Source: Paracoccaceae bacterium (GTDB lineage: Bacteria > Pseudomonadota > Alphaproteobacteria > Rhodobacterales > Rhodobacteraceae). From it: a DNA stretch of 64,000 nt. The DNA lies in contig JAPOTI010000091.1 of the NCBI GenBank assembly GCA_026709265.1, positions 17,451-81,450 of the forward strand. The letters are read 5' to 3'. This document shows positions 10,000 through 57,303 of this stretch, piece after piece. Positions within the stretch are counted from its first letter, which is position 1. Each line of letters opens with the position of its first letter. A program made the position numbers and the translations under genes. The notes under the pieces were generated by a model. The model saw only the letters and a list, made by a program, of their open reading frames with translations, had not been told where the DNA came from and made no database searches.

Positions 10000-11608
10000 A
10001 GAAGCCAACTTCGGGGTGAAATTCGCCGAAAGCGATGACGACTCCAAGAGCGAACTGCAGTTCCACCATGAGTTCAAGGTGACCTTTGCGGCCTCCGGCA
10101 CAACGGACGGCGGAATTGGTTTCGGCGGTAAAATGACGCTGGATAACACGGAGAGTGTGACCAGCGGGAAAGTAACCCCGGCGAAGACGGGTTACATTGT
10201 GACCGCAGATGATTTGGATGCTGCCGGACTCAAACGTCTTGCCGCACGTTTTGGATTTAGTCCCGTCGGCTTAAAAGAAGGCGATATCATTGTCAGTGGC
10301 AGCAAGACAAACTTCTCGGGGTTTGAGCAGGTCAAATCGGCTGATATTCCGGGGCATTTCGAAACAAAACCACGGTCTGCCACAGTCGGGGACACGATTT
10401 TCTTGAACACCGGCACTACATTTACCCGAGCAGCAGACGATAGCAGTCCTACTACCTTTACTGTGGTCACTGCTGTTGCTGCGGCTGGCGGTGCAGAGAT
10501 TACTGAAGACGCGGAATTCACAACGGGTAACGTTCTAACTATCAATGCGGCAGGTGACACTCTCACGGTCGTAGCAGATCAAGATGCATTTGATGCTTTA
10601 TCTGCGGAGGCACAAGCAACGTCGATTATTGCCGCAAATGCGAATGCACGTTATCGGATTCTCAATGCTGGTCATACATATACAGTGACTGAAAGTACGC
10701 GCATCAGCGATCAAGACGTCATTAATGCCCGCTCACAAGCCTACATTGATGGCCTGTCCGCATCGGTTGCCGCTTCCGACAAGCAGAAAGTCAACAATCA
10801 CGGCGAAGTCTATATCTCGATGGACATGCACAAGCTGACGATTGGCTCTGACCTGGATGCCGCCGACAAACTGGCAGGTGGTCTGGCCGATCCCGGATTT
10901 GACGGCATCGGCATCGATGACGTCGCCGAAGGTGTCTACGGGAAATCGGCCAAACAGGTCCGCTACGATGGCGACTTCGGTGTCGCCTCAGTCGCGATCT
11001 CTTATGGCGACAATGCCGGTGATGCGGCCTGGGCCGCCGGGTTCAGTTTCAATGTGGAACCCGTGACCTTCGGAGCTGGTTTTGACAGTCTGGGAGTCAT
11101 GTCAATTGGCATGGGCTTTACCCAAGGCCAAATTTCGATGAACGCCTTGTACTCCACCGACAGCGATCATGATGAAGCTGACAATGAAGCCATCGCCGAT
11201 GTCGCAAAGGCGCGGATTAAAGACAGCGCAGATTATAATGCCAAGATTGGCGGTCTGAATAACGCTTCAAAAGTCGGCAATAAACCGGACCTGAAAAACC
11301 AAGCCATTGGCGTGGATGTCAGCTACAAGATGAACGAAACAACGTCCGTTGTTTTGGTAGCCGCGCAGCACAAGAAAGAGTCCGCGCGTTGGAGTCAGGC
11401 TTGGACAGGAACGACTGTAGGAACTGGTGCTGATACAGACCTCAAGAGAGCCCCTGCCGACGACAAATGGGTCACCACCTCCACCACCGTGGACGCCTTC
11501 GGAGTCGGCTTCTCACATGATCTCGGCGGCGGGGCGACCCTGAAAGCCGGTGCGGGCTCGGTGGACAGCAACGCGGTGGCTGACTTGGGTATCACCATGA
11601 AATTCTGA
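9911..11608 (+). CDS. Outer-membrane porin, paralog B
   Basis: Same signal peptide and N-terminus as paralog A. The barrel core is almost identical at protein level (NHGEVYISMDMHKLTIGSDLDAADKLAGGLADPGFDGIGIDDVAEG... differs from A at only three residues) and the C-terminus is identical (...GGGATLKAGAGSVDSNAVADLGITMKF). The ~210 aa middle segment is unrelated to that of paralog A. Confidence 0.8.
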   Translation: MRKLSLLAAAAMVAGGSAFAMDGGGVSISGEANFGVKFAESDDDSKSELQFHHEFKVTFAASGTTDGGIGFGGKMTLDNTESVTSGKVTPAKTGYIVTADDLDAAGLKRLAARFGFSPVGLKEGDIIVSGSKTNFSGFEQVKSADIPGHFETKPRSATVGDTIFLNTGTTFTRAADDSSPTTFTVVTAVAAAGGAEITEDAEFTTGNVLTINAAGDTLTVVADQDAFDALSAEAQATSIIAANANARYRILNAGHTYTVTESTRISDQDVINARSQAYIDGLSASVAASDKQKVNNHGEVYISMDMHKLTIGSDLDAADKLAGGLADPGFDGIGIDDVAEGVYGKSAKQVRYDGDFGVASVAISYGDNAGDAAWAAGFSFNVEPVTFGAGFDSLGVMSIGMGFTQGQISMNALYSTDSDHDEADNEAIADVAKARIKDSADYNAKIGGLNNASKVGNKPDLKNQAIGVDVSYKMNETTSVVLVAAQHKKESARWSQAWTGTTVGTGADTDLKRAPADDKWVTTSTTVDAFGVGFSHDLGGGATLKAGAGSVDSNAVADLGITMKF

Positions 11609-25893: not shown

Positions 25894-26118
25894 GCAACTC
25901 CATATACTCTTTGGCGTGGAACCCCAAAATCTTTCATGAATTCCCGAAATTTCCCAAGATCGATCTCCTGTACCGCTTTTGTTCGATCATGGCCGCAGGG
26001 AAGGGGTTGTCTTGTCGGATGAGCTGATGTCAGTCGGCACAATATTTCTGACTCATCTGGCTCCGGGATATGTCAGGACACCTCACCAGAAAAGTGCACT
26101 CAATCACTGCCAGTGATG

Positions 26119-26667
26119 TCACTGTCTCAATCTGCCAAACTCTCTGCAGGACTGAACCAATGAGTCAGGAACAGGGTTTTGGGATTCTCTTTGACCCTGA
26201 CACATCTCAAGAAGCACATTGACATGTGCCTGGCAATCTCTGGGGCGCAGCAATTTCGGGTAGCGCCGATGATTTTCATCAACGTGCTGCCCATCGAGAT
26301 AGGCTATCCACGATTCAATTTGCCAAGTGGGTACACATATCACCACCATGTCATCACGTGTCCGTGGATCGATACCTTGCTCTCTGCACTCATCGTCAAG
26401 TTGCCGGATCCTGCCCTCAACACCCAACCTGTCCCCATCAATCATCACGACAAGGCTGCAATGGACCCGGTTTCGTCGTCTGCGATAGGCCTTGAGTTCC
26501 TTTGGAAAACGATCGCGTACATGTTTTTCACCGGACCCACTTCCATGCGGAAGCGGGATCTCCCGAATCTTTCGTCGCAACCAACCCATCTTGGTAAAAA
26601 AACGCCGCATGAAGACCTGATGCTGCTCATCTTCACAAAGCAAGATCAACTCCGCCTTGCGGCTCAT
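26119..26667 (-). CDS. Toprim-like (DUF4276/RloB-like) protein, partner of the upstream ATPase
   Basis: Ordered motifs: LILLCEDEQ (acidic E), VVMIDGD (DxD), QIESWIAY (ExW). The ATG at 26667 overlaps the ATPase stop as ATGA. An alternative TTG is at 26676. Confidence 0.6.
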   Translation of the reverse strand: MSRKAELILLCEDEQHQVFMRRFFTKMGWLRRKIREIPLPHGSGSGEKHVRDRFPKELKAYRRRRNRVHCSLVVMIDGDRLGVEGRIRQLDDECREQGIDPRTRDDMVVICVPTWQIESWIAYLDGQHVDENHRRYPKLLRPRDCQAHVNVLLEMCQGQRESQNPVPDSLVQSCREFGRLRQ

Positions 26668-27782
26668 GTCTCCCAACCCCTTGCCATGATTTCAGATAAA
26701 CGCAAGCCATTTGCCGAGTCTGTTGAAATTTGAGAGAGTTTTCTTGTCTTGGTGGCACCGGATGGTTCACGAATCAGGTGCATTCCGTATTCTGCCCCCA
26801 AGAAATCAATCAATTCAGGATGATGGGTACAAATGACTGTTTGTGGAATCAGCCCTCCACAACGGTCATCCAACTCCATCAGCCAAGGTTGGATTTCGGC
26901 CAATGCAACGTAGTTTTCTGGTTCGTCCAGAAACAGGGAGTATCCGAGTCCAGCGGACAGATGAGTCAGCGCATACAGCGCAACCAGAGCTTTCTGTCCG
27001 TCCGAGATCTCCTGCAATGGAAGTTCATAGTGACGACCAGAACCGTTAAATCCAACCATCAATGCACGTCGATTCAAACCGGTCTTCCGGAGGCGGATTT
27101 GATCAAGACCATCAATGACCTCGATCATCGTTTTTCTGAAATCCTCGACCTTGCCTGGATCCTCGAGTTGAACATGCTGATACCACGAGCTGAAATTGCC
27201 CGCGTCCCTGTCGAGCATGAGTTCAGAACACGTCGTCTCACTCTCAAAGCTGGCCGGGTACAGACCACAGACGAGTATTTTTCTGACCGAGTCGAGAAAT
27301 CCAGACATGCGTCGATTATCGTGTCGTGCCGGGACGCGCGCCAAAGCTGATTCCAGCCAGTCCGCAGAATAAGTCGGTCCCTCTGTGTTGTCGTCGCGAA
27401 AAAGCCTGACCTCACCCATTTGAAATTGAAAGAGCGGATTTCCTCTGCTATCTGTTAATGACTCATTCGCGATACGAATCAGGTTCTGTTGCTGGTCATG
27501 TTCAACTTCGAGGCGGTAGCATAATTCATCTCCATTGATGTCGGCGTGGAGCTCGATGGTCTGAACATCAACATGTTGCCAAGCCGTTTTGCTGCTTACG
27601 GGAAACATCATGGGATCTGTGATCTTTGCCCGACCACTGAGCAACTCACGAAGAGCATACATGACATCGAGAACTGAAGTCTTGCCGGAACCATTAAGCC
27701 CGGTCAGACATGTCAATTCCTGCATATCCAGAGTAAAATTGACAAAGCACTTGTAGTTGTCAATGTAGAGACGCTTGAACAT
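26664..27782 (-). CDS. ABC-type AAA ATPase (AAA_21/AAA_15, OLD/RloA/AriA-like class)
   Basis: Walker A GLNGSGKTS at residues ~29-37, signature-like SDGQKALVAL, Walker B/D-loop SLFLDEPENYV, H-loop ICTHHPE. GAGGAG RBS lies before the ATG at 27782; the track start at 27875 is rejected. Confidence 0.8.
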   Translation of the reverse strand: MFKRLYIDNYKCFVNFTLDMQELTCLTGLNGSGKTSVLDVMYALRELLSGRAKITDPMMFPVSSKTAWQHVDVQTIELHADINGDELCYRLEVEHDQQQNLIRIANESLTDSRGNPLFQFQMGEVRLFRDDNTEGPTYSADWLESALARVPARHDNRRMSGFLDSVRKILVCGLYPASFESETTCSELMLDRDAGNFSSWYQHVQLEDPGKVEDFRKTMIEVIDGLDQIRLRKTGLNRRALMVGFNGSGRHYELPLQEISDGQKALVALYALTHLSAGLGYSLFLDEPENYVALAEIQPWLMELDDRCGGLIPQTVICTHHPELIDFLGAEYGMHLIREPSGATKTRKLSQISTDSANGLRLSEIMARGWET

Positions 27783-28123
27783 TGTCTTCTCCTCTGCTGG
27801 CCCTGATTGTCGTGCACGACACCGTCTTTCCGATTGGAGACATAACAAGATTTGTGTTGAAAAACACGGTGGCAATTAGGCTTCAATTCCGCGTGATGAT
27901 GTCGTCGCAGAAAGGTGGCCGAGAGACATCTGTGTCGCACGCCTCATGATGTGACGTCCGGATTGATCCTGGGACCGGTGCCGCCCGGTCGGGGTCATCA
28001 ATCCGTCCTTATGGCTGGATCGTTATACAAATTGCGGCCATCATCACCTTCTGCCTGCACCGGTGTCGCACAGGGCAGGATTGACTCTGGCAGTGAATGG
28101 ATAATCTGGTTGAGGGCCTTGTG

Positions 28124-31397: not shown

Positions 31398-31472
31398 GCC
31401 GCAGTAGCTCAGTGGTAGAGCGCACCCTTGGTAAGGGTGAGGTCGGGAGTTCAATCCTCCCCTGCGGCACCA
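31398..31472 (+). tRNA. tRNA-Thr (anticodon GGT)
   Basis: Hand-folded cloverleaf: acceptor GCCGCAG/CTGCGGC, D arm GCTC-AGTGGTA-GAGC, anticodon arm CACCC-TTGGTAA-GGGTG, T arm GGGAG-TTCAATC-CTCCC, encoded CCA. Confidence 0.9.
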
Positions 31473-36933: not shown

Positions 36934-37007
36934 TGGAGCGGGTGATGGGAATCGAACCCACGTATTCAGCTTGGAAGGCTGCTGCTCTACCATTGAGCTA
37001 CACCCGC
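36934..37007 (-). tRNA. tRNA-Gly (anticodon TCC)
   Basis: The reverse complement folds as GCGGGTG...anticodon loop CTTCCAA...4-nt variable loop...GTGGG-TTCGATT-CCCAT-CACCCGC-T-CCA. The U73 discriminator and short variable loop are typical of tRNA-Gly. Confidence 0.85.
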
Positions 37008-48560: not shown

Positions 48561-48924
48561 TGCGCAGTCTCCTTGCTTTCGTGTCCGATCAGATCTTTCA
48601 AAGCTGCCCCGCCAAGCCCCGCCGATCGTGATCAGGAATAGACGTTCATTTTTGGCCTGGATGCGTTTGCGGAGTCACGGAAAAATCCGAAATCCTTTTC
48701 GGGTCGACTTTCCTTGTGCCATATGAGCATCTGGACGTCTTCATGAGACCCATGCCACTCATGTCCTGTGTATGAACCGATCACACCCTCGTCATCAAAT
48801 GGTTGTCACATAACGGGTGGGAGCAATAACATGAGATGCGCAGAATATGAAAGTCAGAATCAGTGAGTCAAGCCTGCCAACGGCGTTGCTGCTGATGTCG
48901 ATGACACATCAAATGATCAATTTT

Positions 48925-49302
48925 GTGCGGATGGCACGTAAGCCGGATTCTGTCCCAGGCAGGTGAACTGCCCTTCAGCGGTCATTCATCTTGCCGACAT
49001 GTTACCATGCCGGTCATGCTGCCAACCCGGATCACTTGGCCCAGGACGAGCTTTCGGCACAGCCGATCACGATCCCTATTTGGCATTGCTCCCGGTGGGG
49101 CTTGCCGTTGCCGTTGCCGTTGCCGGAAACGCGGTGGGCTCTTACCCCACCGTTTCACCCTTACCTCGTGAGAGGCGGTCTGATCTCTGTGGCGCTTTCC
49201 CTCAGGTTACCCTGGCCGGGCGTTACCCGGCACCGTTGTCCTGGTGGAGTCCGGACTTTCCTCACGACACAAAATGTCGCGCAACCGCCCAGCCATCCGC
49301 AC
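48925..49302 (-). ncRNA. rnpB: RNase P RNA, bacterial type A
   Basis: The minus strand contains GAGGAAAGTCCGGACTCCAC, GGGTAACGCCCGG, GGTAAGGGTGAAACGGTGGGGTAAGAGCCCACC and ACAGAATCCGGCTTA. P1 is closed by GTGCGGATGGC/GCCATCCGCAC. Confidence 0.9.
49101..49128. repeat. Tandem hexamer repeat inside rnpB
   Basis: CTTGCCGTTGCCGTTGCCGTTGCCGG, i.e. about 3.5 units of GGCAAC on the RNA strand. Confidence 0.9.
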
Positions 49303-57228: not shown

Positions 57229-57303
57229 TGGTGCCTGGGGGCGGATTTGAACCACCGACACGAGGATTTTCAGTCCACTGCTCTACCCCTGAGCTACCCA
57301 GGC
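57229..57303 (-). tRNA. tRNA-Phe (anticodon GAA)
   Basis: The reverse complement folds as GCCTGGG-TA-GCTC-AGGGGTA-GAGC-A-GTGGA-CTGAAAA-TCCTC-GTGTC-GGTGG-TTCAAAT-CCGCC-CCCAGGC-A-CCA. Confidence 0.9.

Follow-up and report, generated by a model that had tools for sequence, protein, structure and literature searches.

A candidate two-gene defence module in a Paracoccaceae genome pairs an OLD-like ABC ATPase with a small Toprim-like protein remotely related to DUF4276

Modules that combine an ATP-binding cassette (ABC) ATPase with a Toprim module, such as OLD, Gabija and the phage anti-restriction-induced system (PARIS), are a major theme of bacterial immunity. In PARIS, the sensor ATPase releases a tRNA-cleaving nuclease, and in the methylation-associated defence system (MADS) the knock-out of mad3 or of mad4 each lowers protection. 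Mad4 is a homologue of DUF4276, a family placed in the Toprim superfamily (PMC12065111). HEC-01 is a two-gene candidate of an ABC ATPase with a TOPRIM protein that is embedded in Hma systems, and such embedding in defence systems is the signature that defines the HEC and PDC candidates (Payne et al., bioRxiv 10.1101/2024.01.29.577857). In addition, at least 1,242 taxa have OLD-ABC + TOPRIM modules in their bacteriophage exclusion (BREX) loci, and these modules were read as PARIS-like backup effectors (2026 survey, PMC12839542). Here, we analysed a pair of overlapping genes at 26119-27782 of a 64-kb window (the whole stretch of DNA under study) from a marine Paracoccaceae/Rhodobacteraceae metagenome-assembled genome (MAG). 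A sequence-only reading of this DNA had called the pair an anti-phage candidate and had held that no such pairing was characterised; for the class this was overstated, since HEC-01 has been tested, mad3 and mad4 have been knocked out and the BREX modules have been surveyed. The class is thus already catalogued as HEC-01, Mad3/Mad4 and the OLD-ABC + TOPRIM modules in BREX, and what is new is the partner family and its cognate ATPase clade, which have no dedicated Pfam, PADLOC or PHROG model, structure or experiment. On balance, we favour the reading that the pair is a horizontally acquired, coupled two-gene defence-type module composed of an OLD-like ABC ATPase and a small Toprim-like nuclease.

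Two open reading frames (ORFs) on the minus strand fill the interval, with the following features:

26664-27782 (stop included), minus strand: gene of an ABC-type (AAA_15/AAA_21, OLD/PtuA-like) ATPase, an ORF of 372 amino acids with its ATG at 27782 and its stop at 26664-26666
26119-26667, minus strand: small partner gene, Toprim-like and a remote DUF4276 relative of an unnamed family, an ORF of 182 amino acids with its ATG at 26667 and its stop at 26119-26121
26664-26667, minus strand: ATGA overlap of stop and start, read from the sequence, which would couple translation of the two genes

The ORFs confirm the sizes, strand and shared ATGA that the sequence-only reading had given. The mechanical ATPase ORF reaches a TTG at 27875 (403 amino acids; 26664-27875); since all homologues begin at an MFKRLY-type start, the real start, as judged from their alignment, is the ATG at 27782. 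The partner was found directly downstream of the ATPase homologue, on the same strand, in 76 of 82 loci, which span at least 15 phyla. Stop and start overlapped in 62 of the 70 loci that could be scored, 40 of them with the 4-nt form (ATGA, GTGA or TTGA). A pattern-limited scan of 185,579 species genomes yielded 103 relatives. At the level of sequence, these results show that the pair is an obligate unit whose genes are predicted to be translationally coupled, as had been proposed from the single copy.

We next consider how the pair came to its present site, between a CitMHS/Na_sulph_symp (SLC13-type) permease gene and phaZ (PHB_depo_C), which is divergent from phaC. None of the window's neighbouring genes was found at other carrier loci, including those of three other Paracoccaceae MAGs whose ATPases are 52-76% identical. 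When relatives at the family level were anchored on the conserved phaC-phaZ genes, the pair was absent downstream of phaZ in 80 of 80, and conspecific assemblies from several samples (96-100% identical) retain it between phaZ and the permease gene, as bears on the earlier suggestion that its presence there might vary. A precise empty site was not obtained in a close relative, as the close genomes (96-100%) all carry the pair and in the next ones phaZ is 62-67% identical. The pair has a GC content of 49.8%, while the window as a whole has 55.1% and phaZ has 55.2%. Within the 64 kb, no 1.66 kb stretch is lower in GC (0.16% quantile; about 2.5 standard deviations under the mean). Its GC at third codon positions (GC3) is 0.52-0.53 compared to 0.59-0.62 in neighbouring genes. 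The GC dip noted earlier is therefore real and modest; the 40-47% then given is found only in a third of the 60-nt lines, and phaZ was put too high at about 58%. Taken together, the lack of shared synteny, the absence from 80 phaZ-anchored relatives and the dip in GC and GC3 show that the pair is horizontally acquired, patchily spread and variably present.

For both AAA_21 and AAA_15 the ATPase passed the Pfam gathering score, with 48.2 bits over a cutoff of 27 for the former and 43.3 bits over one of 32.1 for the latter. Among the PADLOC profile hidden Markov models (HMMs), the best match was HEC-01A (E 6.5e-22, 76 bits, nearly full length), with further matches to PDC-M25A, mad3, AriA and PtuA; the AriA models matched at 6.8e-15 and in part, over the C-terminal residues 232-326. 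Weak matches were also seen to GajA, AbiLi and OLD (6p74), and to RecF and Rad50 profiles. When the AlphaFold2 (AF2) model of the ATPase, with a pLDDT (predicted local distance difference test) score of 87, was searched with Foldseek, it retrieved PtuA of Septu/retron complexes and Rad50 heads (E about 1e-13, template modelling (TM) score 0.5-0.57). The closest solved structure is PtuA (9nnb, 8sux, 8eea; TM about 0.5), to which sequence identity is 12-16%. The catalytic motifs, with their conservation in 59 homologues, are:

27675-27701, minus strand: Walker A, GLNGSGKTS, residues 28-36; G28, N30, G31, G33, K34 and T35 invariant
26994-27005, minus strand: ABC signature, SDGQ, residues 260-263; D261, G262 and Q263 invariant, S260 nearly so
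26916-26939, minus strand: Walker B/D-loop, SLFLDEPE, residues 282-289; L283, D286 and P288 invariant, E287 nearly so
26814-26834, minus strand: H-loop, ICTHHPE, residues 317-323; C318, H320, H321, P322 and E323 invariant

These results show that the upstream protein is a complete ABC ATPase of the OLD/PtuA/AriA type in the AAA_15/AAA_21 group, with a full ABC catalytic site, and bear out the assignment made from the sequence-only reading. Homologues are numerous (2,334 detected). In at least 15 phyla (Planctomycetota, Armatimonadota, Gammaproteobacteria and others) they share 55-60% full-length identity with the protein, and the columns of an alignment of 59 sequences average 74% identity. 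Many of the carriers are sponge-associated or marine MAGs.

The partner is annotated as a hypothetical protein in all public sources. The window protein had no Pfam, NCBIfam or PHROG match, with nothing in Pfam at E<=1. Direct membership in DUF4276, DUF4435, RloB or Toprim, of which the first three had been named as candidate families, was rejected because there was no Pfam or NCBIfam match; for PF14103 the gathering threshold is 30.2 bits, and true DUF4276 proteins score 72-180 bits. A word-indexed search found 8 relatives and an exhaustive profile search 1,642 representatives (50% clustering), of which 1,260 had an E<=1e-10; the low number in the former is partly because the small gene is often uncalled or wrongly started (as at L002 and L087). 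In an alignment of 73 sequences, on which invariance was judged, C11-E12-D13, Q15, D77, D79, E118, W120, E131 and C145 were invariant or near-invariant. All motifs that the sequence-only reading had quoted for the two proteins are present and are invariant or nearly so in their families. The motifs of the partner are:

26623-26643, minus strand: motif 1, LLCEDEQ, residues 9-15; the putative catalytic E12 lies where beta1 (7-11) ends, is invariant and aligns with E9 of DUF4276
26431-26439, minus strand: motif 2, D77-G-D79, after beta3 (71-75); both Asp invariant, D77 aligned with D74 of DUF4276
26308-26316, minus strand: motif 3, E118-S-W120, at the start of helix alpha4, after beta4; both residues invariant, E118 paired with E126 of the DUF4276 motif HEFEAL

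In the AF2 model of the partner (pLDDT 94, predicted TM score 0.89), a beta-alpha x4 core carries E12, D77xD79 and E118 at the C-terminal ends of beta1, beta3 and beta4. The modelled arrangement, a Glu after strand 1 and a DxD after strand 3 of a beta-alpha core, is the residue placement that would be expected of a Toprim-type site. To compare the families, we used a DUF4276 profile of 10 sequences, taken from eight plasmid-borne pairs annotated as AAA family ATPase and DUF4276 family protein and from two metagenomic examples; one or two DUF4276 sequences gave no signal in hhalign, being too shallow as templates, and this comparison was superseded by the 10-sequence profile. The partner family and the profile aligned over 70 collinear columns (P 0.0011-0.0025), with E12/E9, F19/F16 and D77/D74 paired. 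The alignment scored 29.3, whereas the reversed profile gave 16.1 and 200 column shuffles gave 13.7 ± 2.5 (maximum 26.5), with 0 of the 200 reaching 29.3. In global mode, E118 pairs with E126 and the C-terminal Cys motif aligns too.

We also scanned 48 diverse family members. The Pfam matches were weak, to DUF3226 in 13 members, DUF4276 in 5, RloB in 1 and OLD-like_TOPRIM in 1; those to DUF4276 were all sub-threshold, with a best E of 1.3e-4. The PADLOC HMMs matched were seven HEC-01B models (the best one in 15 of 48), mad4 in 5 members and PDC-M38B, and no receiver family was matched in these scans. The window partner itself matched HEC-01B with an E of 5e-4 only, over model positions 34-103 of 204. 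With Foldseek against BFVD, the top match of the partner model was RloB-like (E 0.05, probability 0.75) and a DnaG TOPRIM stood at rank 11, neither of them significant. Taken together, the sequence comparisons indicate that the partner belongs to a remote sister family of DUF4276, related at the superfamily level and outside DUF4276 itself, and that it is probably a metal-dependent nuclease; the kinship that the earlier reading had proposed thus held for DUF4276 at a distance, and family membership and recovery of a Toprim by Foldseek did not follow. The Toprim fold of the partner itself is putative.

In a sister strain, the contigs L083 and L084 (at about 10025-10035) have a run of eight T where the window has seven (T-run 26575-26585). 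The reading frame of the partner is thereby shifted after about 22 codons, and the called product (P0001) lacks E12. The extra T may reflect a homopolymer error in the long-read assembly, true loss of the gene's function or phase variation.

Compared to the described systems, the pair resembles HEC-01 in its two-gene layout, in the near full-length match of the ATPase to HEC-01A, in the weak matches of partner-family members to HEC-01B and in having relatives within Hma and BREX loci. However, the scores, which are those of PADLOC HMMs read without PADLOC's own thresholds, are far under within-family expectation (the ATPase reaches 76 bits, and the partner only an E of 5e-4 along one third of the HEC-01B model), and the pair therefore appears, by sequence, to form a clade distinct from HEC-01 with no dedicated PADLOC or Pfam model. 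The canonical pairs of an AAA_15/21 ATPase and a DUF4276 (PF14103) protein, Mad3/Mad4 of MADS among them, share the upstream ATPase, the overlap of the small partner gene with the ATPase stop codon and the collinear partner motifs (E after beta1, D after beta3, ExW or ExL after beta4), and have methyltransferase, helicase, Mrr and HNH genes among their neighbours. In contrast, DUF4276 proteins are about 215-225 amino acids long instead of 182, carry DxY where the partner has DxD and differ in the C-terminal half. In MADS, mad6, mad7, mad8 and the methylase are mandatory, whereas the window holds no other mad gene and the pair is flanked by the permease gene and phaZ.

PARIS is the best mechanistic analogue of the pair, as it also splits an OLD-like ABC ATPase (AriA) from a Toprim-type partner, and PARIS-like modules are recruited into BREX as proposed backups. 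The differences are that the partner here has no DUF4435 or AriB match, that the AriA match of the ATPase is partial, that AriA and AriB are about 55 and 35 kDa and the proteins here are much smaller (372 and 182 amino acids), and that phage- or satellite-borne copies of the pair were not found in the collections searched. PtuA-PtuB of Septu and retrons is likewise a two-gene unit of an ATPase and a nuclease, and PtuA is the closest structure to the ATPase model; however, the nuclease PtuB is of the HNH type, and the partner here, a Toprim-like alpha/beta protein, has no HNH match. The OLD nucleases, GajA of Gabija and AbiL/RloAB join an ABC ATPase of the same broad family to a Toprim-type catalytic module, which is fused in OLD and GajA and encoded by a separate gene here; there is no GajB helicase, and the window partner has no RloB match in Pfam.

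To place the pair in its genomic context, we inspected the loci of its relatives, where the neighbour counts are lower bounds because a simple gene caller was used. The type 1 BREX loci of six unrelated genomes (L001, L028, L029, L037, L042 and L059) hold the pair, with pglX on one side and pglZ-brxL on the other. Other neighbours of relatives include HmaA/B/C, DrmA/DrmD-like helicases, mad2/mad3-like genes, pAgo, LmuB, SoFic and type II methylases. In the window, no BREX or methylase gene was found and the pair stands alone. A defence role of the pair, as first proposed, is plausible, because the pair is embedded in six BREX loci and adjoins Hma genes, genes like those of the defence island system associated with restriction-modification (DISARM) and other defence genes.

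Some of these BREX loci hold further genes of interest. A second OLD-ABC module lies upstream of pglX both in Planctomicrobium (L001:1-1487; ATPase and DUF4276) and in a Cloacimonadota MAG (L059:4437-6565; ATPase and HNH), so that one BREX operon stacks two ABC-ATPase effector modules. At L028:3436-4128, a Schlafen AlbA_2 and winged helix-turn-helix protein of 231 amino acids, possibly a regulator, is encoded between pglX and the ATPase gene.

By analogy with AriA/AriB of PARIS and with OLD, the ATPase would bind the partner and hold it inactive. It might then sense an infection cue, possibly an anti-restriction protein or an aberrant nucleic acid, and its ATP binding or hydrolysis would release or activate the partner. 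The freed partner would cut nucleic acid (tRNA or DNA) in a reaction dependent on Mg2+ or Mn2+, by which the phage would be stopped or the infection aborted.

Several points weigh against a defence module that works in this way. HEC-01, the nearest candidate already in the catalogues, gave no defence against the phages used when it was tested in E. coli (bioRxiv 10.1101/2024.01.29.577857). About 80% of the loci have ordinary housekeeping neighbours and not defence islands. No phage, satellite, viral-contig or plasmid copies were found in IMG/VR patterns, INPHARED, PLSDB or PHROGs. There is no experimental record for the partner family, and the nuclease substrate and the trigger given above are drawn wholly from analogy. 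A Foldseek search of the partner model against the PDB returned no Toprim in the top 50 (best E 0.027, TM <=0.4), and the family profile against PDB sequences gave only noise and nothing relevant. Furthermore, the strong conservation of the ATPase across phyla would be atypical for a sensor of fast-evolving phage proteins, and argues against direct recognition of them.

The same BREX loci also fit an accessory role, in which the pair would be a non-autonomous part of methylation-based immunity (as Mad3/Mad4 or a BREX/Hma helper) that needs a methyltransferase system, and the window copy would be a leftover orphan that does little or nothing by itself. The constant pglX-pglZ position and the vicinity of Hma and DISARM-like genes agree with it, as do the lowered MADS protection after mad3 or mad4 knock-out, the failure of HEC-01 to defend alone and the frameshifted partner gene of the sister strain. 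However, the roughly 80% of loci that are stand-alone still keep both genes intact, with the overlap and the invariant catalytic residues, which argues for selection on autonomous function. No methylase or BREX gene was found in the window either, and the ATPase reaches 49 bits for NCBIfam MADS3, where the cutoff is 420. We thus regard an accessory role as fairly unlikely.

The 55-60% identity of the ATPase across at least 15 phyla, together with the fixed pglX-pglZ slot, leads to another view, namely that the partner founds its own enzyme family and that the module guards a conserved host or BREX-type process. Such a module would be an integrity sensor for methylation-based immunity that is able to act alone and does not recognise variable phage proteins, and the chemistry or target of the partner may then differ from those of classical Toprim nucleases. 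We hold this to be a minor possibility.

A tight two-gene operon with translational coupling and patchy horizontal spread would also be expected of a selfish addiction or toxin-antitoxin-like cassette, with the partner as a toxic nuclease and the ATPase as its neutraliser, that persists by post-segregational killing; AAA_21 carries the historical label of an AbiEii toxin of a type IV toxin-antitoxin system. However, addiction modules are common on plasmids, phages and viral contigs, and the collections of these that were searched yielded no copy of the pair; that it has repeatedly inserted within BREX operons also speaks for immunity. Addiction is therefore quite unlikely in our view. Because its mechanism overlaps with that of abortive infection, it does not wholly exclude the defence module that we favour.

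We judge it just as improbable that the partner is no nuclease at all but a regulator or adaptor, with an acidic pocket like that of receiver or HAD proteins that binds metal or a phosphoryl group, which would leave the ATPase as the real effector. The PDB matches of the partner in Foldseek were to flavodoxin-like, receiver and small alpha/beta folds of a generic kind, with CKI1 receiver domains among them and no solved Toprim. Acidic residues that end beta1 and beta3 fit a receiver-type fold as well as a Toprim fold. In contrast, the collinear match to the DUF4276 profile beats all controls, and the weak family matches are to HEC-01B, mad4, RloB and OLD-like_TOPRIM and none to receivers, with an RloB-like protein as the top viral fold match. 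Finally, a housekeeping pair for DNA repair or chromosome maintenance (a RecF/Rad50-like ATPase with a nuclease) outside any conflict with mobile elements would suit the likeness to Rad50 heads, the weak RecF and Rad50 profile matches and the mostly housekeeping neighbours, but is highly improbable given the scarcity of relatives in the pattern-limited genome scan, the absence from the phaZ locus of all 80 relatives, the lack of synteny, the atypical GC and the BREX embedding.

The surroundings of the pair in the window were also examined. The window is otherwise core chromosome, with RNase P RNA, three tRNAs and housekeeping genes. For positions 1-16 kb of the window, annotation look-ups returned no exact gene product. 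Flanking and RNA features are:

27783-28123, unstranded: upstream intergenic gap of 341 nt, presumed promoter region, into which an insertion sequence (IS) is inserted in the sister strain
25894-26118, unstranded: downstream intergenic gap of 225 nt, from the partner stop to the start codon of the same-strand SLC13-type permease gene
48923-49300, minus strand: bacterial RNase P RNA class A
31398-31472, plus strand: tRNA-Thr(GGT)
36934-37007, minus strand: tRNA-Gly(TCC)
57229-57303, minus strand: tRNA-Phe(GAA)

The permease and phaZ-phaC neighbours are those named in the sequence-only reading, and the non-coding gaps that it put at 226 and 340 bp are there, with the slightly different lengths listed. 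Its observation that there is no integrase holds within about 10 kb of the pair. The tRNA-Thr gene lies 3.6 kb from the pair, with phaZ and phaC in between, and is not an obvious integration site. No sigma-70-type promoter-like match was found in the 341-nt upstream gap, and the match count of the scanned region was not above that of shuffles; a scan of the gaps for terminator-like sites gave nothing above chance. A 13-nt inverted repeat brackets the pair (26101-26113 and 28087-28099) and was considered as the terminal repeat of a cassette; it was judged to be chance because such repeats do not recur, the mean best repeat in 71 loci being 11.3 nt compared to 10.8 nt in shuffles.

In the sister strain, an IS with DUF4096 and DDE_Tnp_1 ORFs lies between phaZ and the ATPase gene (L084:7741-8501, on a 3.5 Mb contig from sample ERZ25070844). 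Since L083, from the same sample, lacks the IS, the population is polymorphic upstream of the module. In a family-level relative (L113:9231-13899), the synteny from phaZ to MetE-like and cupin genes is kept, with neither the permease gene nor the pair, and the slot holds a fragment of a type I restriction-modification specificity subunit (EcoR124II HsdS, E 2e-24) and a P-loop ORF of 191 amino acids. This suggests that the slot is variable and gathers defence-type cargo.

Within the DUF4276-like branch of ABC ATPase and Toprim modules, the single direct test on record, that of HEC-01, was negative. The pair described here extends this known class and overturns no concept. Its partner family is large, conserved and phylum-spanning and escapes the Pfam, PADLOC and PHROG models, so that censuses of defence systems are likely to overlook it, above all in MAGs that are marine or sponge-associated. 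Experiments could start from cultured carriers of the pair, such as Planctomicrobium sp. SH661, Desulforhabdus sp. TSK and Microcoleus spp., and the recurrent placement between pglX and pglZ leads to the testable hypothesis that the pair may form a PARIS-like backup layer for BREX.

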